DNA of 64,000 nucleotides from a virus (IMGVR_UViG_3300042307_000844), one strand, 5' to 3'; shown: positions 123 through 18,534, counted from the stretch's first letter. Translations and numbers: made by a program. Notes: generated by a model from the letters alone, not told the origin.

Positions 123-204
123 AATGTGTTTTAGTGTTCGTTTCGTGTTCGTTACTTAGAGATCTTTAGCTTGCTTACTTCATGTCCTGAGTGTGATCTA
201 GTTT

Positions 205-471
205 TTAATAAAGGTTCTCACTGTAGAGCGTTCCATCAGAAGATACTTTTCGTCTGATCTGACCTTCTTTTTCAGCTATTTTCCAAGCATCCTCACGACT
301 TAAAAATACCCCCATTTGATCCACAAATCCTTGTTCCTTGACTTTCAAATGATATTTTTCCCCATAAGCTTTAAACATAATCTTACGCATTTCAGGGGAA
401 AAGTGTCGGATACCGACCACAACATCCCCATCATCCATTAGCATGGCAGCAGCAACAATTAATCTTTCCAT
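205..471 (-). CDS. Hypothetical phage protein
   Basis: 88-aa ORF; motif 11 nt upstream; stop codon lies inside the next motif copy. Confidence 0.8.
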   Translation of the reverse strand: MERLIVAAAMLMDDGDVVVGIRHFSPEMRKIMFKAYGEKYHLKVKEQGFVDQMGVFLSREDAWKIAEKEGQIRRKVSSDGTLYSENLY

Positions 472-492
472 GGTATCAGTGTAGTCTAGTTT

Positions 493-927
493 TTAAGAGA
501 AGTCCTCTTTCTTACCATATGCAGTGAATGTATCACCATCCGCGTTAAAATCAATCCTACCATCCTCATAACCCAAATGATAGAATTCGTTGGAAAGCTC
601 TTCCATGACATCACGGATCGCTTCCACGTTGTCCTCATTGCAAATTCCATTGTTATACAATTCGTTTAATGCCGTTTCAATTTTCATATTATTATACTTT
701 GGTTGTTCATCATCGATTTTCAATACCAGTTCATCACCTTCCACGGTAATCATTCCCCGATCCATCATCTCGTTGATCGTCTGGTTGAAGATAACAGTTC
801 CATCCCATTTGTCAAGCACATCCTTGGCTTGGTGGGGATAAGACATGATAACGCCCACTGTCCCTATCTCAAGGAGAGATAGGCGACCATCAAACAATTC
901 AATCGGTAATATTATTTCGTTATTCAT
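493..927 (-). CDS. Hypothetical phage protein
   Basis: 144-aa acidic ORF in a tightly packed minus-strand run. Confidence 0.75.
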   Translation of the reverse strand: MNNEIILPIELFDGRLSLLEIGTVGVIMSYPHQAKDVLDKWDGTVIFNQTINEMMDRGMITVEGDELVLKIDDEQPKYNNMKIETALNELYNNGICNEDNVEAIRDVMEELSNEFYHLGYEDGRIDFNADGDTFTAYGKKEDFS

Positions 928-1159
928 CGTCGCTTACCTTAACACACGCTTCCCAAAAGTCATCTAAATTCTCATTATCACTTATCAAGTGTAAGGAACA
1001 TTTACCCTGATATTCCACGGGAACGGAACACAACACCAAATCCTCCCTACCACATAGCATGATGGATTTTTCCATATTCTCATGGATTTCAGGATCATAA
1101 TCAAGGATACATGTTCCCCCAGCTTCCAATGGCAGCATAATCAATTGGTAATCCATCAA
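920..1159 (-). CDS. Hypothetical protein
   Basis: 79-aa ORF with short overlaps to neighbours. Confidence 0.7.
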   Translation of the reverse strand: MMDYQLIMLPLEAGGTCILDYDPEIHENMEKSIMLCGREDLVLCSVPVEYQGKCSLHLISDNENLDDFWEACVKVSDDE

Positions 1160-1410
1160 TCAAATATTTCAGCATCGAAGTCCACATCCTTACAGGTGCA
1201 ATAACATCTACCAGTATGCCCCTTATTACGAATACAATAATATACCATATATGGAATTCTACCACCGCATATTTTAGTAATTTTTGGAACCCATGATAAA
1301 GCATCATCCCCAATCATGATGTGATCATCATCCTCAAAAGCTGCCAAAGCTTCCACTAAGTATTTCTTTTTCATATTAATGTAATTTAAGCCATGATGCC
1401 AATGTGTCAA
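1156..1410 (-). CDS. Hypothetical protein, Cys-rich C-terminus
   Basis: 84-aa ORF, ATGA overlap with the downstream gene. Confidence 0.6.
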   Translation of the reverse strand: MTHWHHGLNYINMKKKYLVEALAAFEDDDHIMIGDDALSWVPKITKICGGRIPYMVYYCIRNKGHTGRCYCTCKDVDFDAEIFD

Positions 1411-1687
1411 TGGTAAATATTCCCATCACGTTGAACTGCCTACATGCTTGATAGAATGCCGCTTGCTTAAATTCTGAATCGGGAGCGTAAATGAATGCCA
1501 CTTCATTTGGAGTCACCCGAACATAGAACTCCGGTAGCTTTTTGGATACCCCCCACCCCACCAGATTGTTCGCCAATCGCTGGATGGCATCATTGGAAGA
1601 TGGTAATACGCCTGAAAATACAAAACCAAGGCTTTCACCATGGTAGTATTTGAGTTCGTGGAGAGGTAATGTTTTTTCTTCAACCAT
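1376..1687 (-). CDS. Hypothetical protein
   Basis: 103-aa ORF coupled to the upstream stop. Confidence 0.7.
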   Translation of the reverse strand: MVEEKTLPLHELKYYHGESLGFVFSGVLPSSNDAIQRLANNLVGWGVSKKLPEFYVRVTPNEVAFIYAPDSEFKQAAFYQACRQFNVMGIFTIDTLASWLKLH

Positions 1688-2007
1688 TATTGAATGATTT
1701 CAATGCTATCAAATTCCACCATCTCCCTTGGCAAATCCTTGAAATATTTCACGGCACGTTTGGAGAGATTTTCATATCCTTCCACAATTTGTTTGATTGT
1801 GTTTGGAGCGGTGGGAAGATCATATTCCCTTTCCTTTGCACGGGAAATGGCTCGGTTCAATCCTTCATGCCTATCCCAACGATCAATCGGATTGCAGATG
1901 GAATAGCCATAGCAAACCTCGTTCTTATCCCGCAGAGCTACGACCACCCCACGGGGTTGTCCCTTCTTGTTTCTAATGTATCTAATTAGTGTTTGTGCTG
2001 TATTCAT
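1687..2007 (-). CDS. Hypothetical phage protein
   Basis: 106-aa ORF; motif 13 nt upstream. Confidence 0.8.
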   Translation of the reverse strand: MNTAQTLIRYIRNKKGQPRGVVVALRDKNEVCYGYSICNPIDRWDRHEGLNRAISRAKEREYDLPTAPNTIKQIVEGYENLSKRAVKYFKDLPREMVEFDSIEIIQ

Positions 2008-2023
2008 ATTTTTCTATTGTATT

Positions 2024-2461
2024 CTAGTTTTTAACGGTGATCATTTCCGGCCAATATGGTTGAACATTACCATTTTTTCCGTTCGCCACTGTAAGGTGAA
2101 GTCCGCGATAGCCTTCGCTATCCACAATGTTAAGCTCCTTTTTCATTTTGTCAAGTTCTTCAGAATAGACTTTCAGATAAAACATGATGAATCCCTTGGT
2201 GTATCCCCCGCGAACAAGGTATGGATCATATTCAAATTCAATTTCCTCCCCATCATAGTATTCAGCTTTCTTCCAATCCACATCTTTGTGGAATTTTTCG
2301 TTTGCAACTGTTATATGGGCATCATGCAAGGGCTTCTGTAGATTGATCCAATATTCGCGCTGGATAAAAAAATGATAATAATCAAGAATATCCGATCCCG
2401 TCTCCACAACAATGCGGGACTTGGATGAGTCAACCCTGATGGTTCCTTTCGCTTTCAACAT
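2024..2461 (-). CDS. 2H phosphoesterase superfamily protein (T4 57B/Acb1- or LigT-like)
   Basis: Two HxT motifs, AHITV (H49) and LHLTV (H122), in 145 aa. Confidence 0.7.
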   Translation of the reverse strand: MLKAKGTIRVDSSKSRIVVETGSDILDYYHFFIQREYWINLQKPLHDAHITVANEKFHKDVDWKKAEYYDGEEIEFEYDPYLVRGGYTKGFIMFYLKVYSEELDKMKKELNIVDSEGYRGLHLTVANGKNGNVQPYWPEMITVKN

Positions 2462-2482
2462 GGAACAACCATACGCTAGTTT

Positions 2483-2956
2483 TTATCCTTTGGTTTTCCA
2501 GTCGATCACCATCTTCTCATATGGCTCAACTTCGTAGATGCTATCCCATTCAATCTCCGTGCCGTTATAGGACTGATAATAACCGGGAATGTAGTAATGT
2601 CCCATTAATGTCCCATTCTTCTCAACTTTGAAGACGCAGTGCCAATGTTCTCCTTCACCTTCCCCACCCCCTTGTTGATTCACTACTTGCACCACCCAAT
2701 CGCCAAATTGAATTTTTTCCATACTATCATAAAAGGAATATTCATCAATACCCCATTTCGATTGATATGCTGTTGGATTTTTGAGATATTTGTCAGCACT
2801 ATCCTTTGGTTCCAAGAACCTGAGAACGTTTCTGATATTCTTGGGATTGAAATTCTCCAGAATATCGGGTAGCTTTTCGCTTTCCAATTCCTTCGCTTTT
2901 TCCAATTCTTGCTGCATACGAGCAATTTCCGCTTCTATTTCTTTGCTTGTTTTCAT
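2483..2956 (-). CDS. Hypothetical phage protein
   Basis: 157-aa ORF with N-terminal coiled coil. Confidence 0.8.
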   Translation of the reverse strand: MKTSKEIEAEIARMQQELEKAKELESEKLPDILENFNPKNIRNVLRFLEPKDSADKYLKNPTAYQSKWGIDEYSFYDSMEKIQFGDWVVQVVNQQGGGEGEGEHWHCVFKVEKNGTLMGHYYIPGYYQSYNGTEIEWDSIYEVEPYEKMVIDWKTKG

Positions 2957-3732
2957 ATTAGTCTTAATTTGTTTTGTTGTTCTGCTTGTTTAAATTTATC
3001 AATGTAAGAGAAATCTCTATCGTTTCTCAGGACATCAATGTTTGTCAGGATGAAGAACTTGAACCAACCACTACTCATGGTTGTGGCCAATTTCTTCAAA
3101 GATTTTTGATACGCTTCAATTTTCGAGAATTTGAAATCATGGGGGATTAGATACCTTTCCAGAGCAGTCACCCACACTTCCTCTTTCACAAGATTTAATT
3201 TATCATCATGGGAGAGTTTGTCAAATCCTTTTTTGGAGCATGATACCCCCTCATATACCAAGGATTCGTATAAGGGTTTGTCGTAGATGGCTACGCATTC
3301 GTGAATCGAATCGTGATTATACTTTCTCTTCACTGCATCTTCAAAGAATGTTTGGGAATCCTTACCTTTCAGGGAAGCCCATTGTTTGCCATGTTTCAAT
3401 ATCCATGCCTTCACCAACTTCTTATATAACTTTTCATTGACCACACATCCTTTTGATTTGAGAAAGCATACATCGGATACGTGTTTTTCCCAGAATATGT
3501 CCCATCCCAAATGGGATAATTTTAGCGTATATAGATGATCCTTGTCAAGAAACCGATCATCTTGATTATTATCTAAAAAATATTGATATTCTGGTATCCA
3601 GAGATATTCCACTTCTTTCGTGCTATTACCTTGTTCAGACATGTAATCCATGTCCTTTGGTTCCCTTGAAAAATCGGGAAACCAATGGCGGATAGCGTGA
3701 CTACCTATGATCAGTGATTTCATTCGATCCAT
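2953..3732 (-). CDS. Nucleotidyltransferase-fold-like phage protein
   Basis: N-terminal IIGSHA...REPKDMDY fits the GS...DxD Pol-beta NTase signature. Confidence 0.55.
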   Translation of the reverse strand: MDRMKSLIIGSHAIRHWFPDFSREPKDMDYMSEQGNSTKEVEYLWIPEYQYFLDNNQDDRFLDKDHLYTLKLSHLGWDIFWEKHVSDVCFLKSKGCVVNEKLYKKLVKAWILKHGKQWASLKGKDSQTFFEDAVKRKYNHDSIHECVAIYDKPLYESLVYEGVSCSKKGFDKLSHDDKLNLVKEEVWVTALERYLIPHDFKFSKIEAYQKSLKKLATTMSSGWFKFFILTNIDVLRNDRDFSYIDKFKQAEQQNKLRLI

Positions 3733-4205
3733 TCCGGTTTATTGCGTTTCCAAGCATGTAAGTGTGCCTTATCATGCTTGTAGAAGAGTCTATACTTCCC
3801 CACCTCATCAACATCGTTCCACTCTGGAAGTGTCCTACAAATGGCATCCTCCGCGATAGCAAGGGCGAATGGTGTCTGAGCTTCCGAATCAAAACCAAGT
3901 CTCCAGCTATTTGATTCTACCCAATCCAATACATCCTCTGACTTATGACGTTTGTGATAACGTGCTGTATATTCGGATGCGATGGCATATGCGTGTTCAA
4001 GTCCCCATAGGAAATTGTCATATGATGTGCGTAGCCAAATCGTCGTTGGGTGTTTGGGATGTGTTTGTTGGTATGGAGCATCAATTCCTTGTAAATGAAA
4101 ATTTGTGCAGAACATTTGGCAGCTTTCAAGAAGCATCTTCATGTGCCGATCCACCAACCATTTGGCAGATTGAGCGGGACAATAATCGATGGAGAATTGA
4201 TTCAT
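3720..4205 (-). CDS. Pyrimidine dimer DNA glycosylase (endonuclease V)-family protein
   Basis: DRHMKMLLESCQM...THPKHPTTIW...EYTARYHKRH pattern typical of the phage Pyr_excise-like family. Confidence 0.65.
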   Translation of the reverse strand: MNQFSIDYCPAQSAKWLVDRHMKMLLESCQMFCTNFHLQGIDAPYQQTHPKHPTTIWLRTSYDNFLWGLEHAYAIASEYTARYHKRHKSEDVLDWVESNSWRLGFDSEAQTPFALAIAEDAICRTLPEWNDVDEVGKYRLFYKHDKAHLHAWKRNKPEWIE

Positions 4206-4226
4206 GCGCTGATCGTATTCTAGTTT

Positions 4227-4688
4227 TTAACAGTCGTTTTTCAAATCCAACCACGCAGCATAATCACCCTCTTTCAAGAGTTCCATTTCCTTACGTTTGA
4301 GTTCAATATCAGCCCGAATACTCTCAGGTGTTTTACGATCATCCCTATCCGTATTGATCCAAAAGATTTGCCAATCCTTATCATCCGAATTTTCCAAAAC
4401 ACTTTTCAAATACTTCTCGGCATCCTTTTCATCTCCATACCTCATGCTTTTAATGCGAACATAAGGTTCATCGAATTCCAACTGATTGTCCACATCGTTC
4501 CAATATCGGGCGATGAAATAGTATCTACCCTTCAGACCGATTTTCTGTTCAGTGTGGACATAATAAGTCCATTCATCCCCATTCTCTTTCTTTGCCATAG
4601 CTAGAGCCTTGCGCTTTGTGTCAGTGATGTAGTTTCCTGCGATGGCACTTCCGCCGCTACAAGTCATGCCTATTGTGTATTGTTTCAT
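4227..4688 (-). CDS. Hypothetical protein
   Basis: 153-aa ORF; TAA stop lies within a motif copy. Confidence 0.8.
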   Translation of the reverse strand: MKQYTIGMTCSGGSAIAGNYITDTKRKALAMAKKENGDEWTYYVHTEQKIGLKGRYYFIARYWNDVDNQLEFDEPYVRIKSMRYGDEKDAEKYLKSVLENSDDKDWQIFWINTDRDDRKTPESIRADIELKRKEMELLKEGDYAAWLDLKNDC

Positions 4689-4689
4689 T

Positions 4690-4866
4690 TTATTGTTCTA
4701 CAGTATGATATTTTACTTCTTTTGTTTGTAGAAATCTGATATAGTTTTCGGCTTCATGTTTGCTGCGCCATTGCATACTGTTCGTCCACCACCAAAGAAT
4801 TTTTTCTTGAACTGTAAAGGTGCTGACACCATTGCCATTAATTGTTTCTTGTATTCTATATTTCAT
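4690..4866 (-). CDS. Small hypothetical protein (58 aa), paralog of 4863-5099
   Basis: Manual translation MKYRIQETINGNGVSTFTVQEKILWWWTNSMQWRSKHEAENYIRFLQTKEVKYHTVEQ; fills the gap exactly; below ORF-track cutoff. Confidence 0.75.
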   Translation of the reverse strand: MKYRIQETINGNGVSTFTVQEKILWWWTNSMQWRSKHEAENYIRFLQTKEVKYHTVEQ

Positions 4867-5099
4867 ATTTCAAATTCTTTAATAGTCGTTTCTCCAGTTG
4901 GAATGGAAAATTTATTGATTATTTCAACACCTCTTTCAGCGGCTTCCAAAGAATCATATCCTGAATTAAGATAACCACAAAATCTGTGTACTCCATTGGT
5001 AGCATTCTCCCAATATTCCCACCATAAAAATTTGGTTAGGTATTCTATATGATACCATGTAGCAAACCCATTTCTTTTTTCAACTATTCTAAATTTCAT
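4863..5099 (-). CDS. Small hypothetical protein
   Basis: 78-aa ORF MKFRIVEK...FLWW. Confidence 0.75.
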   Translation of the reverse strand: MKFRIVEKRNGFATWYHIEYLTKFLWWEYWENATNGVHRFCGYLNSGYDSLEAAERGVEIINKFSIPTGETTIKEFEI

Positions 5100-5310
5100 A
5101 TTTGTCCATCAATTTATCATATTCGTTCTTATAGTCAAGAATCATTTCTCTTGCACTTGCAGAACAATCCATACTGTTCATCCAAAGAATCACAGCTTCC
5201 GCCACGCTATAACATCCTGAGCCGAAAAACATTCGTATCATTTCTTGATGATGTTCTGGCAGCAACTCAAATCTTTCGTCAAAAATGGCATTGTGATATT
5301 CTCTTTTCAT
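5089..5310 (-). CDS. Hypothetical protein
   Basis: 73-aa ORF with coupled overlaps. Confidence 0.7.
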   Translation of the reverse strand: MKREYHNAIFDERFELLPEHHQEMIRMFFGSGCYSVAEAVILWMNSMDCSASAREMILDYKNEYDKLMDKYEI

Positions 5311-5570
5311 AGAAGCGGTGCTGTGATCGGTGTTGGGGTTTCTGGAAATTTTGCCTTCATATTATGGACTTTTTTATAATCAACCAATCCGATTGAATCG
5401 TGATATTCGATCATCTGAACAACATAGGCATAAGCGTTATACAGCCCCTCGTCTTTCTTTCTAAGTTCGTCTTCTCTCAAAAGATCATTCATTCTCAAAT
5501 TAGCTTTGTCACGATGATACAAAGCCATGTAATAGATGTTTTTGAGTAATTGTTTTGGGGGCGTTTTCAT
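5307..5570 (-). CDS. Hypothetical protein
   Basis: 87-aa ORF with coupled overlaps. Confidence 0.7.
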   Translation of the reverse strand: MKTPPKQLLKNIYYMALYHRDKANLRMNDLLREDELRKKDEGLYNAYAYVVQMIEYHDSIGLVDYKKVHNMKAKFPETPTPITAPLL

Positions 5571-5851
5571 ACTTCAAATTCGTAATAAGTTGTCACCTGA
5601 GTATCCCCACATTGATCGCAAGTCTCTGAATAGTGGGTATCCTCAACGGGAAGCAATTGCACCAAATCATTCACCCCGATTTCCCCATCATCAAACATGC
5701 GCTTGATTTCCACAAACAGATCATCGTGGAACTTTTCACGCTGTTCTTTGGTTAGCTCGTATCGCTTGTCTTCGCATGAGTAAGCAACACCATTGACTTC
5801 CAGATGTCCCCCTGCCGTGCATCCATCGGATATGTTGATTTTGTATTTCAT
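5567..5851 (-). CDS. Hypothetical protein with C-terminal CxxC
   Basis: 94-aa ORF, CDQC motif. Confidence 0.75.
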   Translation of the reverse strand: MKYKINISDGCTAGGHLEVNGVAYSCEDKRYELTKEQREKFHDDLFVEIKRMFDDGEIGVNDLVQLLPVEDTHYSETCDQCGDTQVTTYYEFEV

Positions 5852-6030
5852 TTCAATAGTTCCTTTGCTTTTTCTTCCAATGCTTCCCTACAATAATTAT
5901 ACGTCCCATCGGATCGCTTTCCAGTAGCAACAAGACCCACAAAATTCTCAAGTTCAAGGACTCTCAAGTGTTCATCAATCCACTTCTCGTAGAAGTATTC
6001 TCTAGGATTTGCTTCCATGTCCACGCTCAT
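5848..6030 (-). CDS. Hypothetical protein (start may be 6018)
   Basis: 60-aa ORF directly downstream of a motif copy. Confidence 0.7.
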   Translation of the reverse strand: MSVDMEANPREYFYEKWIDEHLRVLELENFVGLVATGKRSDGTYNYCREALEEKAKELLK

Positions 6031-6052
6031 TGTATTCTAGTTTTTAAAGAGA

Positions 6053-6087
6053 ATACCCCATCCCGACAAACAAACGGGATGGGGTAT
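6053..6087 (-). terminator. Intrinsic terminator-like hairpin
   Basis: Perfect 13-bp inverted repeat ATACCCCATCCCG / CGGGATGGGGTAT followed by a T-rich run on the minus strand, just after the 6094-6339 stop. Confidence 0.75.
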
Positions 6088-6093
6088 CATGTC

Positions 6094-6339: not shown

Positions 6340-6345
6340 ATGTTT

Positions 6346-6540: not shown

Positions 6541-6541
6541 A

Positions 6542-7400: not shown

Positions 7401-7577
7401 TCAGGCATACCATTTTTCAACTTTGTCAAATTCTGTCACAACATCGGCATAGCCCAACCCAACCAATAGATCACATAATGCGCTATCAGCGTAACCATGG
7501 GCAGCTTCAGTGTCTCCGTTTTGTTGAGCATTCCAAAGTGCTTTCATCGCAGTCTCTCTCAATTCTTCGTTTGTCAT
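7401..7577 (-). CDS. Small hypothetical protein
   Basis: In-frame ATG at 7577 lies 11 nt from the motif (track start 7583). Confidence 0.7.
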   Translation of the reverse strand: MTNEELRETAMKALWNAQQNGDTEAAHGYADSALCDLLVGLGYADVVTEFDKVEKWYA

Positions 7578-7606
7578 ATCCATATTATATTCTAGTTTTT
7601 AAAAGC

Positions 7607-8276: not shown

Positions 8277-8280
8277 GATT

Positions 8281-8858: not shown

Positions 8859-9202
8859 AATTTTTCCGTTTCATATACCCAATCATCCACATAACCAGTC
8901 TCCCAATCTTTGAATGTTCGCATTCTCACCTTGTAGGTTCCTTCTTCCAAATTCTCAAAATTCTTAAATACCGTATCAGCACCAGAATTCGAACAATCTT
9001 CATCAAACCAGTCCACCCAAGATTTTCCACTTTTTCTGGAGAGAACCCGAATATCCTTTCGCATGTGTAGTCCATTTTTATCATGCCAGTGACAGATTGC
9101 AACCTTTATGAAGAAATATGATTCATTTCTTTTATCATATTCTTTCAAAAGATCAGCTTCTTGGGTCATGAATTTTTCAATTTCTTCTGCTTCTAACCAC
9201 AT
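8855..9202 (-). CDS. Hypothetical protein
   Basis: 115-aa ORF. Confidence 0.7.
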   Translation of the reverse strand: MWLEAEEIEKFMTQEADLLKEYDKRNESYFFIKVAICHWHDKNGLHMRKDIRVLSRKSGKSWVDWFDEDCSNSGADTVFKNFENLEEGTYKVRMRTFKDWETGYVDDWVYETEKL

Positions 9203-10281
9203 AATCCTAAAAGTTTCTCCATTGATTTCTTCACCAGCTTATCATCCAATTCCTTGTTGTCAAGCATCGCAAATCCAAGCGGAATCATGAATCCGTCCCA
9301 ATGCTCCTGAATAGCCATTGCTTGCTTCTTACGGGAGTCCAGCTTGGAGATGTATCCCATGGCACGTTCAATGGTGTTGACCGAATGGACAAATTTGCCG
9401 TATGCTTCGGTGATTTGCATCATTTCATCTTTGATTTTCTCTGCCAATTCAAAATCAACGTGTTGAACGGTGTAATTATAAAAATCTCCATATTCTATAA
9501 ATCTTGGGGATGATAGGAAAAAATCCAAAATATTTGAAAGGGAACGCATTCCCGTAAAAATTTTATGAAGGCTCAGATACCATTCACCTTTCAGCTTACG
9601 CATTTTCCCACTCTCAGAATATAAAACCACTCCTTCCTTTCCCCGCCACATCTCCACATCTTGGACACATTCCTGAATTGATTCGTAATGATATTTATCT
9701 GGTCTTGGAATATCTAAATCTTTTGCCAGATCATCCAAATGCTCCTGAGAAAACATAAGACCCGTTTCCTTATGGATGATACCAATCAAAGATAATTTTG
9801 GTTCTGGAAACCCTCCAACCACAATTATGTTACTATTTGTCTGCCATTCGCAAAGGAACGTATAATCAGGATCATCCATCACATAATCAAAGAATTTCTC
9901 ATATTTTTCCAATAGAAAATCTAATTCGTGTCCATTCTCCAATTGACGTAAATTGGAAGTCCCCCTCGTTCTAGCCAAAAGTTCTCCTCTATATGAATCA
10001 AAAATTCCAAGGGAACCATCCAACTTCTCATAGGCTACAAATCTCTCATCCAGAGGGAATTTATCCAAATCTGGTTGTTCAGAGTAATTGAAGAATTTTG
10101 GGAACGATCTGGAAATTATGTGATGATCTGATTTACGAATGATCATGGATCGGAACTTGAGAGTGTCTTCAACCCACTTGCATTTTATTGAATCGGGAGT
10201 GATCAATAGGCATTCATCCCCAGCAATGGTGACATCTTTGAAGTTAAATTGTTCTGGATCGGGGAGTTTCATATTGTCCAT
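9193..10281 (-). CDS. RNA ligase, T4 Rnl1-like
   Basis: Motif I YEKLDGS, RSFPKFFN, TFLCE and EGVVL nucleotidyltransferase motifs; likely start MDNMKLPD at 10281. Confidence 0.85.
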   Translation of the reverse strand: MDNMKLPDPEQFNFKDVTIAGDECLLITPDSIKCKWVEDTLKFRSMIIRKSDHHIISRSFPKFFNYSEQPDLDKFPLDERFVAYEKLDGSLGIFDSYRGELLARTRGTSNLRQLENGHELDFLLEKYEKFFDYVMDDPDYTFLCEWQTNSNIIVVGGFPEPKLSLIGIIHKETGLMFSQEHLDDLAKDLDIPRPDKYHYESIQECVQDVEMWRGKEGVVLYSESGKMRKLKGEWYLSLHKIFTGMRSLSNILDFFLSSPRFIEYGDFYNYTVQHVDFELAEKIKDEMMQITEAYGKFVHSVNTIERAMGYISKLDSRKKQAMAIQEHWDGFMIPLGFAMLDNKELDDKLVKKSMEKLLGLCG

Positions 10282-10711
10282 TTTGTAAATTTTTCTTATA
10301 TTTTTTGGGAACATCCACTAGAAATGCTTGGCACGTTTTATCGGCTTCAAATGAGTGGGGAAGATTGAAATCAAAAATGACACCCTCTCCTTTGTTGATA
10401 CGACATTCATTTACCTTTTTACCATCCCAAGCGAACAATGTACCGCTACCAGAAATCAACAAACACATTGTCATTGCCGATTTTGGAGAGAGACTGTCAG
10501 TGTGCATTCCCACATCACCAAAAGTATAGATTCCTTGTTCATAAACCCTTGGCTTTTCGATTCCACGACTCTTTAGAAATCCACGGACAAAATCTTTGGA
10601 TTCCTTTGAAGAATGGATGGGATAAACTTCCCCATCTTCAAATTTTTTTCCGATTTTTGTGGAGAATTTGAGAATTTCTTGTTTCTCCTCCGTTGTGATT
10701 TCAATTTTCAT
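10244..10711 (-). CDS. Cupin / 2OG-Fe(II) dioxygenase-like protein
   Basis: HTD...PHSF HxD...H triad in a beta-rich C-terminal domain; motif 11 nt upstream. Confidence 0.6.
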   Translation of the reverse strand: MKIEITTEEKQEILKFSTKIGKKFEDGEVYPIHSSKESKDFVRGFLKSRGIEKPRVYEQGIYTFGDVGMHTDSLSPKSAMTMCLLISGSGTLFAWDGKKVNECRINKGEGVIFDFNLPHSFEADKTCQAFLVDVPKKYKKNLQNGQYETPRSRTI

Positions 10712-10725
10712 GGGATCAGTGTATT

Positions 10726-10962
10726 CTAGTTTTTAAGCTTGTATCTTTCAAACCATTCTTCCAAGGTGAGAAATTCAACATTAGCTGTATCAGACGGGTT
10801 GAAGTTCTCACCTAAAAATTCAAATTCCCATATTGAGCCTTCTCTTAGCTCATGGAAATCCACAAAAGCCTGTTCTTTTGATTCATATTCAAACGGTATA
10901 GTCTCATCCCCATCAGCTTCGTAGGGGACGCACCAGTGATATCTTAATACTAATTTTTCCAT
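10726..10962 (-). CDS. Hypothetical protein
   Basis: Likely start MEKLV at 10962; ends KN* using the TAG of a motif copy. Confidence 0.7.
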   Translation of the reverse strand: MEKLVLRYHWCVPYEADGDETIPFEYESKEQAFVDFHELREGSIWEFEFLGENFNPSDTANVEFLTLEEWFERYKLKN

Positions 10963-10966
10963 AATT

Positions 10967-11184
10967 TCATTCCGAATCGTCAAAGTCCAAATACGTGCGT
11001 ATTTTATCCATTAGATTATTCCGTCTTCCAATCCCGCGACTCTTCAGAAATTTTTTGATAAAATCTTTGGATTCCTTTGAAGAGTGGACGGGATCAACTT
11101 CTCCGTGTTCATATTTTTTTGCCTGATTTTTGTGGAGAATTTGAGAATTTTTAGTTTCTCCTCCGTTGTGATTTCAATTTTCAT
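10967..11184 (-). pseudogene. Frameshifted, truncated copy of the 5' end of 10244-10711
   Basis: MKIEITTEEKLKILKFSTKI, then a 2-nt insertion (AGGC+A7 versus GG+A7); homologous frame resumes YEHGEVDPVHSSKESKDFIKKFLKSRGI and then diverges; the upstream motif and 11-nt leader are duplicated too. Confidence 0.8.
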
Positions 11185-11198
11185 GTGATCAGTGTATT

Positions 11199-11567
11199 CT
11201 AGTTTTCAATTAATTCTATTTCCTGATAATTATAGTTCGGCTTTAGTTCAAATTCTGTCAAAGTTAAAATTTTATCATATCCCAATTCTTCAATAAAGTC
11301 GAACCAACAATATCCCTTATCAAAGCAGGAATGATTACATGACAGACATACGTAACCCCCCCAATCAATCCCTTCGGTTTCTTCATATATATCATCACTC
11401 AAACAATTACAACATATTGGTTGATTATTTTTTCTGATCCACATACTTGATGTATCTGCATCGTATTCACAACCATAATCTGATTCATGATATTTGCAGG
11501 ATTTTATCCTCCAACAAACCTCATCGTTTATTGATTTGAATTCTAGTTCTACTTTAGCGTTTTCCAT
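11199..11567 (-). CDS. Cys-rich hypothetical protein
   Basis: 122 aa with CCNC and CLSC; ends EN* at a motif TAG. Confidence 0.75.
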   Translation of the reverse strand: MENAKVELEFKSINDEVCWRIKSCKYHESDYGCEYDADTSSMWIRKNNQPICCNCLSDDIYEETEGIDWGGYVCLSCNHSCFDKGYCWFDFIEELGYDKILTLTEFELKPNYNYQEIELIEN

Positions 11568-11571
11568 AATT

Positions 11572-12264: not shown

Positions 12265-12929
12265 AGATTAATTTCCTCCGTTTGATTTGATTGCCAGATG
12301 AAGTTCTTCCATGTGGGAACCCTATGTTTATTCATTACAATATGATACCAATATTCATCTCCCCTCAAGGTGATTTTCACCAGCTTACCCGAAAATTGAT
12401 TATTGACAAGCCATTCGTAATTGTAAATTCGATACATATATATCAGCAGATACTTCTCAAGCAGCTTTTGAAGCATGAATACCCGCTTTCCGAATTTCTC
12501 TTGATACCGATCCAACTCATAAAGCTTTTGCCCCAAATCGTGATTGATCTTTTCCTTGGGTTCCTCAATCCAATTGAAAGAATATCCCCACCCATAACGA
12601 TCATCCATCTTGGAATAATCCCAAGCCCACCATTTGTTCTGATCACCCGTGTATTCATGGGTTGGTTTGCAATGAAGAACAATCTTATTATTCACCGCTC
12701 TTGCCTTGATCTCCTCCAGAAACGGAAACCACACCCGCTCATCCCATTCCTTATCTTGTCGTTGGGCAGTCTGATAGGCTCTTGCCATGTCATTTAGACC
12801 ATCATGAAGACTATTTTCATCAACTCTCCAGTTACGGATTAGAAATCTTCCGCGCAATCCATCAAGATAGGTGGATTCGTAATTATCGTAAATATATTGC
12901 CAATTGTCTGTTTTAAGCGTTTCGTGCAT
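12261..12929 (-). CDS. Hypothetical protein
   Basis: 222-aa ORF; motif 11 nt upstream. Confidence 0.8.
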   Translation of the reverse strand: MHETLKTDNWQYIYDNYESTYLDGLRGRFLIRNWRVDENSLHDGLNDMARAYQTAQRQDKEWDERVWFPFLEEIKARAVNNKIVLHCKPTHEYTGDQNKWWAWDYSKMDDRYGWGYSFNWIEEPKEKINHDLGQKLYELDRYQEKFGKRVFMLQKLLEKYLLIYMYRIYNYEWLVNNQFSGKLVKITLRGDEYWYHIVMNKHRVPTWKNFIWQSNQTEEINL

Positions 12930-12950
12930 GGATGTAGTGTGGTCTAGTTT

Positions 12951-13118
12951 TTATTTCATTGCAAGGCAATCACCATTCGTGTTGTAGTAATCCCAAGCAT
13001 ATTCATAAGTGTCCTTGTGGGGACAATCAAAACAAGTGTAGTCCTCTGGCTTGTAATTCGGCGGTTCCCACTCCATGTCGGATGGGTGATCTTCAAATGT
13101 TGGGATTTTCCATTTCAT
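12951..13118 (-). CDS. Small Cys-containing phage protein (55 aa)
   Basis: Manual translation MKWKIPTFEDHPSDMEWEPPNYKPEDYTCFDCPHKDTYEYAWDYYNTNGDCLAMK; TAA stop lies in a motif copy. Confidence 0.7.
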   Translation of the reverse strand: MKWKIPTFEDHPSDMEWEPPNYKPEDYTCFDCPHKDTYEYAWDYYNTNGDCLAMK

Positions 13119-13491
13119 AATTCAAAATCTCCTCATCTTCCACTTGCTCCATCTTATACAGACTGTTTGCAGTTGTGATATAGGTTACTCCCTCGTTCTC
13201 TTCCAGCTTCATCACTTCCGATGTGTGCATGGTTCCCCGCTTCACCACACCATTGCGATTCCAACGGTCAATGATGATCATCTTTCCGACTTCGATTTCT
13301 CCGATAAGCTCTCCCACGATCCAGTAGTCCACGGGAGGACTCTTTCCTTCGTGAAACTGTCCCCAAGTGCCACGCTCTTGGTCAATACGGTATTCCTCAA
13401 CGGTGGAAGATTGTGTAGCCTCACTGTTGGGGTTGATATTTATTTTAGTTAATTTTATCATAATTTCATTTTTTAAAGTATGTTTTTCCAT
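13093..13491 (-). CDS. Hypothetical protein
   Basis: 132-aa ORF. Confidence 0.75.
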   Translation of the reverse strand: MEKHTLKNEIMIKLTKININPNSEATQSSTVEEYRIDQERGTWGQFHEGKSPPVDYWIVGELIGEIEVGKMIIIDRWNRNGVVKRGTMHTSEVMKLEENEGVTYITTANSLYKMEQVEDEEILNYEMENPNI

Positions 13492-13834
13492 CCCCTCTCT
13501 TAATCACATCCACCCGCACCTTGGTAATCCCTTTTTTCAGGAAACCAAGCTTACTGGCAGCAGCTTGGGAAAGGTCAACGATCCTTCCCCGGATGTATGG
13601 CCCGCGATTTGTGACGCGAACCATCACATCCTTACCATTGGATAGGTTGGTAATCTTGGCAATCGTGCCAAATGGCAGAGTCTTATGTGCCATCGTGTAT
13701 GAATCATCCCTCAGGGGGATTCCGCTTGCTGTATGCGTCCCCCCATTCGTGCGAATTGAGTAATGGGAAGCGATTCCATATTCTTGAGAGAACCCAAGGT
13801 TAATCGTCAGTAGTATAATTAGTATTGTTTTCAT
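13466..13834 (-). CDS. rlpA: RlpA-family lytic transglycosylase (DPBB domain) with signal peptide
   Basis: GIASHY...TASG...AHKTLPFGT...RVTNRGPYIRGRIVDLSQAAA; hydrophobic N-terminus. Confidence 0.9.
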   Translation of the reverse strand: MKTILIILLTINLGFSQEYGIASHYSIRTNGGTHTASGIPLRDDSYTMAHKTLPFGTIAKITNLSNGKDVMVRVTNRGPYIRGRIVDLSQAAASKLGFLKKGITKVRVDVIKRGDGKTYFKK

Positions 13835-13848
13835 AATTTGATTGTATT

Positions 13849-14070
13849 CTAGTTTTTATTGGGATGGTTTGCAAAATATTCCGCAATGCTATCATCCCAA
13901 GGCTTGTTACGTTTATCCAACTCATCCGCTATGAATCGTAATTGATGAGATGATAAGTATCCGTTTAATTCTTTGGGAAAATAATAAATATATCCATCAT
14001 CATTGAAGACGAAATCCCCCGCATCATCAATTATCTTGATTAATTTGTTTTTGTAACTTTCAATATGCAT
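13849..14070 (-). CDS. Hypothetical protein
   Basis: Start reassigned to MHIESY at 14070 to avoid a large overlap; ends KN* at a motif. Confidence 0.65.
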   Translation of the reverse strand: MHIESYKNKLIKIIDDAGDFVFNDDGYIYYFPKELNGYLSSHQLRFIADELDKRNKPWDDSIAEYFANHPNKN

Positions 14071-14329
14071 AATGTTTTTCAGGGTCAAATCCATATACTT
14101 CACACAAGTCCCGAAAAATCGGCTCATATTCCCAATATCTGCGATGAATTCCATCATAATATCGCTTGAATCTGTCGTGTCGAATGCCTTCCTCGTAAGG
14201 ATTGATCTTCAAATCATACTCTCCAAATTTATTTTTTCTAAAAGCATTCTCAGCTAGAATAGCGTCTTCGGCTTGCCGTCTTTTGGATGGCTTTTTGATG
14301 TATTGAAGGTTGGTCATAATGTTTTCCAT
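14060..14329 (-). CDS. Hypothetical protein
   Basis: 89-aa ORF. Confidence 0.7.
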   Translation of the reverse strand: MENIMTNLQYIKKPSKRRQAEDAILAENAFRKNKFGEYDLKINPYEEGIRHDRFKRYYDGIHRRYWEYEPIFRDLCEVYGFDPEKHYAY

Positions 14330-14526
14330 TTCTTTCTAGCAGCTTGAAGACACCCAATGATCCTTTCCAGTGTCTCCAAATCCTTAATTTCCCCATGATC
14401 GGGCAATCCATGGATCATACAACCGATTCTTTCAGATGGGAATTCGCAAAGAGTGACTTCAAAGTGAATCAGGGCATTATCATAGTATGTCTTGAAGACG
14501 ATCTCTTCGTCAATTTTGTGTTTCAT
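14314..14526 (-). CDS. Hypothetical protein
   Basis: In-frame ATG at 14526 is 11 nt from the motif (track start 14532). Confidence 0.7.
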   Translation of the reverse strand: MKHKIDEEIVFKTYYDNALIHFEVTLCEFPSERIGCMIHGLPDHGEIKDLETLERIIGCLQAARKKWKTL

Positions 14527-14547
14527 ATTCATATTGTATTCTAGTTT

Positions 14548-15216
14548 TTAACGATGTTCTACAATCTCAAGAATATCTAAAATCCTGCTATCACAACCAT
14601 TGTGAGATGCGAAGTGTGACTGGTGGAAGTGACCACACCAATGCTTTTTAGCTCCACAAAGTTCTATTAGCTTGGCAATGTCCTCCCGTTCCTTCACACA
14701 TTCTTCCCAAAGTGTGGGGTCTTTCTCACACCATCCAGCGATCCCTTGCTTCGAAAAATCCCCGATCCAATTTGGAGCAGAATGCGTTATTAAAACATCC
14801 ACCTTATCCACCAATTCAGGCTTCAAAACAAACGCTTCATCCTCCCACCATGACATATTGGGGACACGAATACGACGATCAATGCTCACAGCACCCCCAA
14901 CAAATAGGAACTTCTCCCCATTGAATGTCTGGTAGGAATAATCACGTATCAATTCAAAATGAGAATGATTAACAGTGCCAAGAAAGTATTTGGGATCATC
15001 GTGGTTGCCCCTCGCTCCTTTGAATTGAATGTTACGCTTCTTGAAACGATTGTTTAGAAGCTCAATCTCCCTATGTTGCTTATCGGGAGATTTAAACCCA
15101 ACGCCTAAATCGCCCACATGTAGGAGAACACAATCTTCTATTTTAAGGCTTTCTAACTTACGAAACAGAGCATCCCAATCTCCATGGCTGTCCCCAATAA
15201 TACACACACTTGTCAT
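14548..15216 (-). CDS. Calcineurin-like metallophosphoesterase
   Basis: GDSHG, VGDLG, RGNHD, THSAP and GHFH motifs. Confidence 0.85.
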   Translation of the reverse strand: MTSVCIIGDSHGDWDALFRKLESLKIEDCVLLHVGDLGVGFKSPDKQHREIELLNNRFKKRNIQFKGARGNHDDPKYFLGTVNHSHFELIRDYSYQTFNGEKFLFVGGAVSIDRRIRVPNMSWWEDEAFVLKPELVDKVDVLITHSAPNWIGDFSKQGIAGWCEKDPTLWEECVKEREDIAKLIELCGAKKHWCGHFHQSHFASHNGCDSRILDILEIVEHR

Positions 15217-15872
15217 CAGTAATCATCCTTTCCAATCCAGAATTGCTTCATTCCAAGATAATCTTCTTTTCCCCAAGGTGTGTAGAAAATCTCCTTATCT
15301 CTTCCCATCTTTTTCAATTGTTTCAAGGTGGGTAGAACATTAACCGTGAAATATTCCTCCCGACCACTATCATTGTTATAATATGGAATGAGTTCAATTT
15401 TTGAAATTGATTTGATCTGCTTATGTTTGGAGAAGTATTCATGAAGTTTTTTCAGATTATAATTTTTTGATCTGATATGGGCATCAATATAATCCCCCAC
15501 AACAACCACGGGAATAGGCTCCAGATCAACTGTCCAAAACGTGTGATCGTAACTACATGCCAACACGATTTTGGAGATATCGATGTCCTCTGGATTTTCC
15601 GGCAATTCCTCCCCTTTCCACCATTTTTCATCCTCTTTTTTATTCCAACCCCAGTATGGATTTGTTTCTTCCAAATACTCCAAACTCGAATTATAAACAA
15701 CATCAAAGTGTAATGTGCTATTATGTTTTGATTTTACGGCTTTACCGCCATATTCCAATGTTCTGGATGTTTGCTTATCGTTTACAACAACTTCCTTTAA
15801 AACAACATTGGGATGTAACCTATAGGTCGTGGTTTCCGTAACCACGGTTGTTTTCTTTTTCGTAACTTTCAT
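15216..15872 (-). CDS. Hypothetical protein
   Basis: 218-aa ORF; motif 11 nt upstream. Confidence 0.8.
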   Translation of the reverse strand: MKVTKKKTTVVTETTTYRLHPNVVLKEVVVNDKQTSRTLEYGGKAVKSKHNSTLHFDVVYNSSLEYLEETNPYWGWNKKEDEKWWKGEELPENPEDIDISKIVLACSYDHTFWTVDLEPIPVVVVGDYIDAHIRSKNYNLKKLHEYFSKHKQIKSISKIELIPYYNNDSGREEYFTVNVLPTLKQLKKMGRDKEIFYTPWGKEDYLGMKQFWIGKDDY

Positions 15873-15886
15873 GTCCCTATTGTATT

Positions 15887-16555
15887 CTAGTTTTTAACAG
15901 GCGTGAACCCCAATTCCTTGGCTTTTGCCTTGGATAAAGTCCGATAGCATCCACGTTTATTGACACAGAAAACACCAGCATTGCCCGTCACTTCACAGGT
16001 TTGGGATGCTTGGTATTCCGCCAAACGAATCATCCCCTTGATGATATCATCTCCCCCACTGGTGTATATACAAAGGCTATACTTCTGCTTCACCTGTTCG
16101 ATAGTAACTGGCTCAGGATATCGCGTTCTCTGATATTTTGTGAAATCAAACCGCATTTTACGAAGCAGCTTTCGGATTCGATTTTCCCATTTCCACCAAG
16201 AGGTTGCTTGAATTTTTTTCTGCATCTCAGGAAAAATGATTCGTGGATTATCACTTGGGTATAGACGTTGAGTTGGCTTGAGAACCTTGCTGACAAATTT
16301 TGCTGCTTCCCAAGTCTTACCATTCCACCAGAATTTGAAACGCTTTATCCGCGTGTCTTCCAGATAATGGATTTTTGTTTTGGAGTATTGATTGATCGCT
16401 CCAAAGAGATTGAGAATGATCTTCTCCCATCCCTTGGGGACATCTGATATGCTCATTGAACCTTCTCCCCACTCAACGAAAGTAAAATCCATTGCCAAAT
16501 CTTGAATGAATTTTGAGGATTGCTCAAAGTCTTTTTTCCATTGTTCTCCTGTCAT
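15887..16555 (-). CDS. Hypothetical protein
   Basis: 222-aa ORF ending KN* at a motif. Confidence 0.8.
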   Translation of the reverse strand: MTGEQWKKDFEQSSKFIQDLAMDFTFVEWGEGSMSISDVPKGWEKIILNLFGAINQYSKTKIHYLEDTRIKRFKFWWNGKTWEAAKFVSKVLKPTQRLYPSDNPRIIFPEMQKKIQATSWWKWENRIRKLLRKMRFDFTKYQRTRYPEPVTIEQVKQKYSLCIYTSGGDDIIKGMIRLAEYQASQTCEVTGNAGVFCVNKRGCYRTLSKAKAKELGFTPVKN

Positions 16556-16556
16556 A

Positions 16557-17072
16557 TTATTTTAATTTCAAGCTGTTTTTAATATTCTCTACGTGCCGAT
16601 CAATCACGCTTTCTGGTACTCCATGGGAGTTGGTTCCGTTGTGGCGTTTCTCCACCACTAGAGAGAACACCATGATACCACGCCTTTCCGCTTCGTCAAT
16701 ATAAAATTGAAATTCGGAAATTTTGGTGTTTGTGTTAGCTACCACAATAGTATCAAAAAGTTCTGGATTATCCAGAGCATACAGGAATTTTTCACGACAC
16801 CGTTCATGAGCTTTTCCCAGAAGATCAGGATTGAAATTGTATTTCCCCAATTCATCATAGAAGTAATCATCAGCACAGCAGATTGCAAGTTCCCCGCCGA
16901 AGAGCATTGCTACAGAGCTTTTGCCGCATCCAGAGCTTCCACGAAGGATCACCAAATTTGGTTTTCTAATCTCAACATCACATCCCAAGTCCTTGAAATC
17001 TTGAATTATTTCTTCGTCACTCATAGCAGCTAATTGTTTATCAAAATCCTTTTTAAATTGTTCTATTGTCAT
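16557..17072 (-). CDS. P-loop kinase (AAA_33 / polynucleotide kinase-like)
   Basis: Walker A GSSGCGKS, CADDYF, VVANTN and HGVP motifs. Confidence 0.8.
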   Translation of the reverse strand: MTIEQFKKDFDKQLAAMSDEEIIQDFKDLGCDVEIRKPNLVILRGSSGCGKSSVAMLFGGELAICCADDYFYDELGKYNFNPDLLGKAHERCREKFLYALDNPELFDTIVVANTNTKISEFQFYIDEAERRGIMVFSLVVEKRHNGTNSHGVPESVIDRHVENIKNSLKLK

Positions 17073-17093
17073 AATTTTAAATATTTTTCCAGA

Positions 17094-17252
17094 TCAACCC
17101 TTGCGGTATTTTGCGATGAGTTCCTTTTCCTTCGCAGTTCGCTCAACTTTGAACTTCTCCCCTCTTCGGAGTATTATTTTATTTTATCCATGACAATCCC
17201 ATTCCTTAGCGAGACGGTAGATGTCTGGTTCTACTGATGTTTTGTATGACAT
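17094..17252 (-). pseudogene. Small ORF interrupted by an in-frame TAA (or a 22-aa peptide)
   Basis: ATG 11 nt from a motif; MSYKTSVEPDIYRLAKEWDCHG*NKIILRRGEKFKVERTAKEKELIAKYRKG*; TAA at 17184-17186. Confidence 0.45.
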
Positions 17253-17266
17253 GTTTTGATTGTGTT

Positions 17267-17989
17267 CTAGTTTTTAAGAATTTCCTTCTTTCTAGCTCCT
17301 TTGGCAATCATCACATAATGATTATCCTCCCGCTCAATCCTTGCTTGGGAATATCCAACCAATTCGGGATATTTCCGTTCCACGTATTCCCCAACCACTT
17401 GCCACACCTTCATATAGTCCTTGGTTTCATGGGCTTTATCCAATTTATTCACGATAGTCTTCCCCTTGATGGGGAATCTCTTTTCAGCGGCAAATCCCTC
17501 AATTACTGGTAAAGGAACTTTGGTGATTTGTAGGGGATCACGATAATTCACACCATTACCTTCGTATCCGTCGTTGTTCTTTAAAGAAACATATTGACGC
17601 AGGGTGGAGTAGATTTCGTATGCCAGTGTCCCCCCACCTTCAATCATTTTTTTATTGCATACCCCAAAATTACCCCGTAGATGACCACGCTTCAAACGCT
17701 CTTTCTCTTCCCAAGACACTTCCGTATTGCGTTCCCCATTCTCCCCATAGGTGCATCCATATTGGTCGTAATAACCCCCATGTCCATCGTATTTCAATTG
17801 GGGAGGTTCGGGATACAGAATACCCCTTACAAATGTTTCAATAGATTCCGATTCTTTCCAAGACAAGCCCACATCCCGAAACGCCTCATCAATGGCGATC
17901 CTGATCTGTCCTGCTCGCAATCTGGAATACACTTCCAAGGCAGTCATCATCACCCGAAGGTGTTCGTCAGTAAATTCAATTTTAGTCAT
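17267..17989 (-). CDS. Hypothetical protein
   Basis: 240-aa ORF flanked by motifs at both ends; ends KN*. Confidence 0.8.
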   Translation of the reverse strand: MTKIEFTDEHLRVMMTALEVYSRLRAGQIRIAIDEAFRDVGLSWKESESIETFVRGILYPEPPQLKYDGHGGYYDQYGCTYGENGERNTEVSWEEKERLKRGHLRGNFGVCNKKMIEGGGTLAYEIYSTLRQYVSLKNNDGYEGNGVNYRDPLQITKVPLPVIEGFAAEKRFPIKGKTIVNKLDKAHETKDYMKVWQVVGEYVERKYPELVGYSQARIEREDNHYVMIAKGARKKEILKN

Positions 17990-18010
17990 GGAACGATTGT
18001 AGTCTAGTTT

Positions 18011-18331
18011 TTAACCCATCCCATGTAGGGGGGATTTAGCAATCCAATTTTTAAAATCCCCCTCATAGTGCCATGCTCTTTTTGTGGATGCATGGTCTGG
18101 TAATTCATCAATTTTTTCAGTTGAATATGACGAGGGCCATCCATTGGATGGTTTTGATACCCCGTTGATAATACCGAACCCCCCAACATGAAATTCCACA
18201 ACGTCCCCGATTTTATATTTCGGGTCGCCTTTTGGTTGCATTGCACACCATCGAATGTCTGAATAACTCTTACGATGATCCTCCCGTGAGTTATAATCCC
18301 ACTTCTGTAATTCATTCATGTCTTCTTGCAT
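18011..18331 (-). CDS. Hypothetical protein
   Basis: 106-aa ORF; motif 11 nt upstream. Confidence 0.7.
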   Translation of the reverse strand: MQEDMNELQKWDYNSREDHRKSYSDIRWCAMQPKGDPKYKIGDVVEFHVGGFGIINGVSKPSNGWPSSYSTEKIDELPDHASTKRAWHYEGDFKNWIAKSPLHGMG

Positions 18332-18345
18332 GTCCCCAATATAGT

Positions 18346-18534
18346 CTAGTTTTTAAGAACGTAATCCATGATCTCCATCTCGAAAGATTTTCGATCCAAA
18401 ACACTCCCCTCCTTCACATAAATAAAGGATTCTGGATATTCCGCATCCAACCCTGCCCACACCTCAATCACATCGTCCTCCTTCATCAGAAAGGTATAGC
18501 CCCCAATCACAGCTTCGTATTTCTCACTCATCAC
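18346..18534 (-). CDS. Hypothetical protein
   Basis: 62-aa ORF ending KN* at a motif. Confidence 0.7.
   Translation of the reverse strand: MMSEKYEAVIGGYTFLMKEDDVIEVWAGLDAEYPESFIYVKEGSVLDRKSFEMEIMDYVLKN

Follow-up and report, generated by a model that had tools for sequence, protein, structure and literature searches.

A repeated junction box in an uncultured T4-like phage probably combines a stop, a leaderless promoter, and a start codon at the borders of gene units

In a 64,000-nucleotide (nt) stretch of viral DNA (IMGVR_UViG_3300042307_000844; this whole stretch is referred to as the window), 16 units of one to about ten genes each are headed by copies of a conserved, promoter-like element of 19 bases, here called the junction box. 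The window is the minus strand of positions 98719-162718 in a 177,639-bp viral contig with a GC content of 39%, which is recorded in IMG/VR as linear with an estimated completeness of 87%. The gene content of the contig includes a T4-type large terminase (TerL) and a tail sheath, and its source is an uncultured T4-like lake phage. Genes in the array are mostly ORFans, accompanied by an RNA ligase, phosphoesterases, an ATPase, and a DNA-binding-protein-like gene (phrog_624). We conclude that the box is probably a stop, leaderless promoter, and start element in one, which also serves as a homologous-recombination site for the gene units.

A scan of the window for TAAAAACTAGAAT, allowing up to two mismatches, identified 16 box copies between positions 195 and 18355, every one on the minus strand. 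In 100 dinucleotide-preserving shuffles used as controls, the mean was 4.39 copies and the maximum was 11, with none (0/100) attaining 16. These results confirm the 16 minus-strand copies described in a previous reading made from the DNA alone (hereafter the sequence-only reading), as 16 copies stand against 4.4 expected and none lies on the plus strand. That reading had also placed an ATG 11 nt after a TAGAAT-like hexamer, which is equivalent to 22 nt after the first A of AAAACTAG. Exactly the 14 starts that it listed have this spacing (boxes 1-10, 12, 13, 15, and 16 in Table 1), and its two exceptions, the ATG at 2007 (2 nt further) and the pair at 6030/6018, were recovered as well. The absence of a Shine-Dalgarno (SD) sequence, which it had likewise reported, holds for the whole set, as an SD core precedes 0 of 21 motif-led genes. 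The -35-like hexamers proved as sporadic as described, being found at only three of the 16 window copies (TTGAAA at 17 nt, position 10751; TTGAAA at 16 nt, position 4244; and TTGCAA at 17 nt, position 13874). The unit at 11184 had been considered a duplication that included its motif; the segments concerned are indeed 81-93% identical (10643-10736 and 11116-11209, 93%; 10555-10649 and 11026-11120, 81%), and the 46-codon open reading frame (ORF) at 11184 is a shortened copy of the 155-codon gene at 10711. The ORFs led by the motif at 183 (2 codons), 17252 (22 codons), and 11184 (46 codons) are remnants.

The array runs on past the left edge of the window to the contig end. Across the whole contig, AAAACTAG occurs 37 times on the strand corresponding to the window minus strand, with four copies at 87-93.5 kb, one stray, and the other 32 spread between 144.3 kb and the contig end. 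A weight-matrix scan of the contig at a threshold of at least 14 bits retrieved 39 copies on one strand and two on the opposite strand, compared with 0-1 in shuffles. Additionally, AAACTAG was the top-enriched 7-mer upstream of ORFs, at 16-fold. The stop codon of the upstream ORF (TAA or TAG) lies inside the box in 14 of the 16 window copies and in approximately 29 of 36 copies in the contig, and a variant box with TGA for TAA still retains a stop. Within units, 25 junctions are stop/start overlaps or gaps of no more than 4 nt.

Table 1. Junction boxes and associated features, in window coordinates (aa, amino acids)
Feature	Position	Strand	Description
Box 1	18329..18356	-	TT-AAAAACTAGAcTAtAtT-N6-ATG; heads 106-aa ORF 18011-18331; TAG ends upstream 62-codon frame
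Box 2	17987..18014	-	TAA ends 106-aa gene; ATG 17989 heads 240-aa ORF
Box 3	17250..17277	-	-10 CACAAT; TAG ends 240-aa gene; ATG 17252 opens 22 codons only
Box 4	15870..15897	-	Full consensus; TAG ends 222-aa gene; ATG 15872 heads 218-aa ORF
Box 5	14524..14551	-	TAA ends 222-aa phosphoesterase-like gene; ATG 14526 heads 70-aa ORF
Box 6	13832..13859	-	TAG ends 102-aa gene; ATG 13834 heads 122-aa ORF
Box 7	12927..12954	-	-10 CACACT; TAA ends 55-aa gene; ATG 12929 heads 222-aa ORF
Box 8	11182..11209	-	TGA replaces TAA; ATG 11184 heads 46-codon truncated duplicate of the next unit's gene
Box 9	10709..10736	-	ATG 10711, 155-aa ORF; heads unit of about nine genes including RNA ligase (9193-10314)
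Box 10	7575..7602	-	-10 TATAAT; upstream gene stop 8 nt before box; ATG 7577 heads 58-aa ORF
Box 11	6016..6047	-	Directly after terminator hairpin; ATG 6018 (4-nt leader predicted) or 6030 inside the -10
Terminator-like hairpin and T-run	6055..6080	-	Immediately upstream of box 11
Box 12	4203..4230	-	TAA ends 153-aa gene; ATG 4205 heads 161-aa DNA-binding-protein-like ORF (phrog_624)
Box 13	2459..2486	-	Degenerate: CTAGCG, -10 TATGGT; TAA ends 157-aa gene; ATG 2461 heads 145-aa ORF
Box 14	2005..2034	-	TAG ends 145-aa gene; ATG 2007, 2 nt later than usual (2-nt leader predicted)
Box 15	469..496	-	Crossover point of cassette reordering relative to G002; TAA ends 144-aa gene; ATG 471, 88-aa ORF
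Box 16	181..208	-	ATG 183 opens 2 codons only; within left 125-nt direct repeat (174-298)
Tandem duplication	10555..11209	-	Box and first ~46 codons of gene; two copies of ~180 nt each, 81-93% identical
Late-type box NTAAATA-N5-ATG	21504, 28723, 31641, 34117, 37369, 38617, 40978, 41750, 43423, 44650, 48182, 49253/49263, 63763		

The box is also present in related phages, all of which were compared as metagenomic assemblies; the source contig is itself incomplete. At least 101 IMG/VR stretches contain its exact 17-mer, and 467 of the 480 core sites in them lie on the locus-major strand. The composite pattern AAAACTAG-NN-TANNNT-N6-ATG was counted in five related records, which include G001, G002, G003, and G006, yielding 52/1, 41/1, 0/7, 36/0, and 0/8 forward/reverse occurrences and none in a reversed-pattern control. 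Relative G002 is a complete genome of 207,489 bp with terminal repeats, its early region is collinear with that of the source phage at 75-99% identity, and its first 60 kb carry 81 core copies with 0 on the opposite strand. The TerL proteins of G001, G002, G003, G005, and G006 are 70-78% identical to that of the source phage, G005 being a further relative. In G001 (48-50 kb) and G004 (41-45 kb), adjacent boxes have identical variable spacers, for example runs of ...TAGAATTGGGACATG, and these local junction sub-families look like the product of recent spread or concerted evolution. The full consensus with its ATG was found in none of 185,579 cellular species genomes, and a blastn search of the 35-nt box against 50,697 deposited phage records returned chance partial matches only; the box is accordingly confined to an uncultured lineage of phages and does not represent a class of host promoters. 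Furthermore, a megablast search with 40 kb of the window against the same phage records gave no DNA match, and host inference through a sugar epimerase was uninformative, the sole match being 37% identical and belonging to a gammaproteobacterial metagenome-assembled genome. A full-text literature search for the motif string returned no phage-promoter paper among the top-ranked matches listed, and in the cyanophage and methylophage promoter papers, the term "leaderless" appears only in the reference lists.

The consensus reads TTAAAAACTAGAaTAcAaT, followed by five variable bases, a pyrimidine, and ATG. Leave-one-out base frequencies were obtained from 472 sites in the contig, the 101 IMG/VR stretches, and G002, with 286-347 sites per position. 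The A5-C-T-A run is essentially invariant, with G-15 at 0.87 and A-14 at 0.90; the downstream hexamer has frequencies of 0.88 (T-12), 0.99 (A-11), 0.74 (c), 0.89 (A), 0.69 (a), and 0.98 (T-7), and a pyrimidine occupies -1 in 86% of family sites. Of 36 copies in the contig, 32 have their ATG at a distance of exactly 22 nt from the first A of AAAACTAG, a spacing that sets the first -10 T 12 nt ahead of the ATG. Sequence information upstream of -25 amounts to only 0.0-0.2 bits per position, nothing conserved was seen at -35 to -26, the region in which T4 middle promoters have a MotA box centred at -30, and there is no conserved -35; the invariant AAAAACTAGA, which spans -23 to -14 and is more conserved than the -10, is predicted to replace the -35 element.

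The choice between the two hexamers that share a T within the box was examined through a base-loss test on 438 unique sites, scored for an ATG 22 nt after the first A of AAAACTAG. Where the shared T was lost, the ATG arrangement was retained at 41 of 71 sites, 37 of them with ORFs of at least 40 aa; loss of the A of TAcAaT (A-11) left the arrangement at 0 of 17 sites, and loss of its last T (T-7) left it at 3 of 21. The last T of a -10 hexamer is normally its most critical base. Because the sigma-70 signature, in which the A at position 2 and the T at position 6 are the most conserved, belongs to TAcAaT, these data support TAcAaT (-12 to -7) as the putative functional -10, rather than the TAGAAT assigned this role by the sequence-only reading. 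Two further elements of that reading change accordingly in our prediction: a -10 at -12 to -7 would put +1 on the A of ATG, making the mRNAs fully leaderless instead of near-leaderless, and the promoter would not be of the classical extended -10 type, as there is no TG at -15/-14. Bacterial leaderless genes are marked by a TANNNT that begins 12 nt ahead of their start codon (PMC3160421), and experiments in Deinococcus have validated this hexamer as a true -10 (PMC12340547).

The box resembles a promoter because it is strand-locked, sited at junctions, placed after a terminator and before tRNA genes of relatives, and conserved despite unrelated flanks. To this extent, the promoter proposed previously is supported, without its extended -10 and its near-leaderless product. 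The strong terminator hairpin that box 11 directly follows lies in a 58-nt upstream stretch that folds at -27 kcal/mol, and in relatives, five tRNA genes start 22-30 nt after a box, a distance compatible with a promoter. The terminator-following copy, the tRNA genes, and the third of sites without an ATG favour action of the box at the level of transcription and not of translation. In G002 at 57560-59900, tRNA-Ile, tRNA-Met, and tRNA-Arg each follow a box variant (AAAACTAGC[CA]TAGAAT or degenerate), with the tRNA start 16 nt after AAAACTAG, and a box-led 22-codon mini-ORF precedes tRNA-Leu in the same interval. The 58 nt upstream of boxes fold at -10.95 kcal/mol compared with -9.10 kcal/mol for controls in this phage, and at -9.59 compared with -8.81 kcal/mol in G002. 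A stem-loop search of these upstream regions revealed no general hairpin, with convincing cases at only 2-3 of 36 copies, and the box itself has neither dyad symmetry nor a hairpin.

The second most enriched word upstream of ORFs was CTAAATA, and the corresponding late-type box, NTAAATA-N5-ATG, is present in 45 copies whose strand follows gene direction and which lie mostly outside the early region. The offset of the ATG after TAAATA shows a tenfold peak at 5 nt (45 copies, compared with about 4 at other offsets), and the last 20 kb of G002 show the same 5-nt peak (7 compared with about 1). The T4 late promoter box spans -13 to -6; by this alignment, NTAAATA-N5-ATG also has the A of its ATG at +1, which implies that the late mRNAs are predicted to be leaderless too. 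As two unrelated promoter classes share this abutment, a promoter set directly against the AUG is the parsimonious explanation. In T4 (TATAAATA) and in cyanomyoviruses (NATAAATA), the late promoter lies approximately one helical turn before the start site (PMC2988020, PMC2984593). The NTAAATA box precedes structural and other genes, such as the tail sheath gene near 34105, and some of its pairs are divergent and back-to-back (49253/49263). At genome positions 5360-5383, outside the window and on the opposite strand, a strong copy of the junction box is followed 20 nt later by TTAAATA-N5-ATG, possibly forming an overlapping early-plus-late promoter of the kind proposed for MotA-less T4-like phages. 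The sole sigma-70 region-2 match in the contig, which is weak (13 bits; genome 62085-62234, in a 150-aa frame outside the window), is probably a gp55-type late sigma.

Cassette exchange at the box was observed directly at one hotspot. Two cassettes there stand in swapped order relative to G002, within DNA that is 97-99% identical, and the homology switches inside a shared 30-34-nt box at every junction. In other independent contigs, the same flanking genes enclose none, one, or other cassettes, and the homology of approximately 20 contigs to the downstream gene of the hotspot starts no more than 10 nt from the box, with differing neighbours. Dozens of junctions share 19-34 identical bases, which makes crossover between copies possible. 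Of the 62 alignment-block ends in each phage, 25 (source phage) and 24 (G002) lay between -15 and +40 relative to a box, compared with 7% for random positions. Under a gene-junction control, this enrichment (40% vs 7%) was found to be mostly a gene-boundary effect, and many indels simply use gene boundaries. G002 diverges from box 3 onward over some 400 nt. At genome positions 162421-163702 (window 1-298 and beyond), an insertion of 1.03 kb that G002 lacks runs off the left edge of the window and is flanked by a 125-nt direct repeat; this repeat holds the end (3') of the upstream gene together with a junction box, and the ORF of its left copy is cut to 2 codons.

In the reading that we favour, the box would act early in infection as stop, promoter, and start. 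Its 5' end (T-TAA-AAAC-TAG) would supply stop codons in two frames, at the place where the upstream gene usually ends. Next to this, a core promoter lacking a -35 would offer TAcAaT as the -10 to a sigma-70-type holoenzyme, by default that of the host, with AAAAACTAGA standing in for the -35; its reader could be part of the host polymerase (sigma or core) or a protein of the phage. Separated from the -10 by six bases, the last of them a pyrimidine, the A of the ATG would be the +1, such that the first gene of each unit would be translated from an AUG-initial leaderless mRNA and the inner genes through tight stop/start coupling. Homologous recombination between copies would move, delete, or insert whole units, each with its own expression signal. 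More tentatively, this reading might be extended to a whole lineage of uncultured T4-like lake phages in which the first genes of nearly all transcription units are leaderless, both early and late, in which some factor reads AAAAACTAGA in place of a -35, and in which the box is a recombination module for trading genes.

Several points weigh against the combined stop, promoter, and start element. An ATG stands at +1 in 190 of 286 family sites, and a third of the sites are without it; the start at the A of ATG is itself a prediction from sequence. The conserved AAAAACTAGA at -23 to -14 matches no known sigma-70 contact. Three tRNA genes of G002 start just 16 nt after a box, too close for a start at position 22, so that either upstream promoters are used there or initiation at the box occurs earlier. 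In the gene-junction control, the figures were 15/30 for boxes and 20/53 for other junctions in the source phage (odds ratio 1.65, p=0.36) and 17/38 and 18/59 in G002 (p=0.20); the idea of the box as a shuffling boundary, which came from the sequence-only reading, is thus supported by the crossovers inside the box at the hotspot but not by any significant preference for boxes over other junctions. The nearest TerL among deposited phages, from ViI-like phages, is 31% identical, and there is no cultured relative. Finally, the capacity of the host for leaderless translation is an assumption. SD cores are scarce genome-wide, preceding 7% of other genes and 14% of internal early genes, upstream regions are A-rich across the contig, and many internal genes overlap the preceding stop (ATGA or TAATG), which together suggest that the host may depend little on SD pairing.

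The alternative that survives best, although we consider it unlikely, keeps the leaderless start and treats the box as a delayed-early or middle promoter, at which a phage-encoded or virion protein binds AAAAACTAGA and recruits the host RNA polymerase in a MotA/AsiA-like manner. Such a factor would fit an element at -23 to -14 that exceeds the -10 in conservation and has no counterpart among sigma-70 contacts, a consensus whose absence from the cellular genomes leaves no host promoter class, and the presence of the motif-led phrog_624 gene within the array. However, no MotA, AsiA, T7-type or other phage RNA polymerase, ribosomal protein S21, or extra sigma was detected in searches of the contig, and PF09114 and PF09010 were not found there; these are weak negatives, as the MotA, AsiA, and phage RNA polymerase families went undetected in control genomes too. 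Moreover, k-mer enrichment yielded no other candidate immediate-early promoter class, leaving nothing obvious to express the factor first.

A -10 at TAGAAT, with a start 5-8 nt after it and a near-leaderless message carrying a 3-6-nt leader, appears improbable. The T and A of this hexamer are invariant and its G is 87% conserved, and the G002 tRNAs located 16 nt after the first A of AAAACTAG, which fit a start approximately 6 nt after the hexamer, constitute the main remaining evidence for it. Nevertheless, the ATG/ORF arrangement downstream survives replacement of its sixth position (71 of 438 sites), a -10 does not typically carry G as its third base, and the late-type box has its ATG at the predicted +1. 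Placing the -10 at TAGAAT also leaves unexplained both the 98-99% A/T conservation in the downstream hexamer and the fixed distance to the ATG.

Action at the RNA level on read-through transcripts, through processing to 5'-AUG ends or through termination-reinitiation by ribosomes, is very improbable. The stop codons of upstream genes lie 18-25 nt before the next ATG, there are few terminators between units, and folding across the box is weaker than in controls (-7.8 vs -10.6 kcal/mol), as in a ribosome landing zone; yet the TAnnnT conservation and the pyrimidine/purine at -1/+1 are promoter features of the DNA, copies occur after a terminator, before tRNA genes, and without an adjacent ATG, and the unrelated late box abuts its ATG in the same way. 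Least credible of all is a primary role as the target of a site-specific recombinase or, as an operator, of a repressor, with the likeness to a promoter accidental; this would accommodate the crossovers inside the box but not its lack of dyad symmetry or hairpin, the occurrence of crossovers anywhere in the 30-34 nt of shared identity as in homologous exchange, the many indels at junctions that have no box, or the strict ATG distance.

The combined stop, promoter, and start element can be compared with several known systems. The PeSL elements of RB49/phi1, T4/PST, and KVP40/nt-1 (Arbiol et al. 2010, PMC2839356; Comeau et al. 2014, PMC4122927) consist of a full sigma-70 promoter, a stem-loop terminator, and an SD with a start codon, and their copies recombine in hyperplastic regions; exchange between flanking PeSL copies also gives rise to mini-circles. 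Like PeSLs, the box is a repeated, putative early-promoter motif that flanks small ORFans in a T4-like hyperplastic accessory region, and exchange between copies results in insertions, deletions, replacements, and reordering. In contrast, PeSLs have a -35 and a -10 with AT-rich sequence upstream, a G/C stem-loop terminator, and an SD before the start, whereas the box has a -10-like hexamer with no -35 information, neither stem-loop nor SD, and 6 nt between the -10 and the ATG; the invariant -23 to -14 element and the start codon at the predicted +1 are found in the box only. The PeSL likeness drawn by the sequence-only reading thus extends to the motif-bounded reordering of a hyperplastic region and not to a -35, stem-loop, or SD, and the box is like PeSLs in genome plasticity and different from them in construction.

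Leaderless genes of Deinococcus-Thermus and Actinobacteria (PMC3160421, PMC4007540, PMC12340547) share with the box a TANNNT approximately 12 nt before the start, independence from a -35, the lack of an SD, and a 5'-end AUG, which for the box is predicted; they are host chromosomal genes with no further upstream element, whereas the box has a 10-nt invariant element and dozens of phage copies. According to a later summary (PMC3594737) of Sevostyanova et al. 2007, the middle and late transcripts of Thermus phage phiYS40 are mostly leaderless, with mapped start sites. Thus described, phiYS40 and the present phage are both large myophages in which whole temporal classes mostly lack a leader, as predicted here; phiYS40 has a leaderless-rich Thermus host, whereas the present phage is T4-like, its starts are predicted, and its boxes double as recombination points. 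The late-type box shares with T4 and cyanomyovirus late promoters an NTAAATA-type sequence at the -10 of structural genes and differs from them in lying exactly 5 nt before the ATG in 45 genes. Extended -10 (TGn) promoters likewise lack a -35 and have conserved bases just upstream of the -10, but these are T-15/G-14, whereas the box has G-15 and A-14 within a conserved stretch that reaches out to -23. Integron attC sites are imperfect inverted repeats that fold into hairpins, unlike the box, which has no dyad and is less structured than controls.

At approximately 28 nt, the box is compact and would form an expression signal complete in itself, which could help gene callers set start codons in such phages and offers a handle on early regions and cassette borders in metagenomic phage contigs. 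Its invariant upstream element points to an uncharacterised promoter-recognition contact. To our knowledge, dependence on leaderless translation among large phages has been documented only for the Thermus phage phiYS40; if the starts are as predicted, a T4-like lineage would depend on it for both its early and its late programmes. If the reading is true, promoter-mediated cassette shuffling would be possible without the stem-loop of PeSLs or a full sigma-70 promoter.

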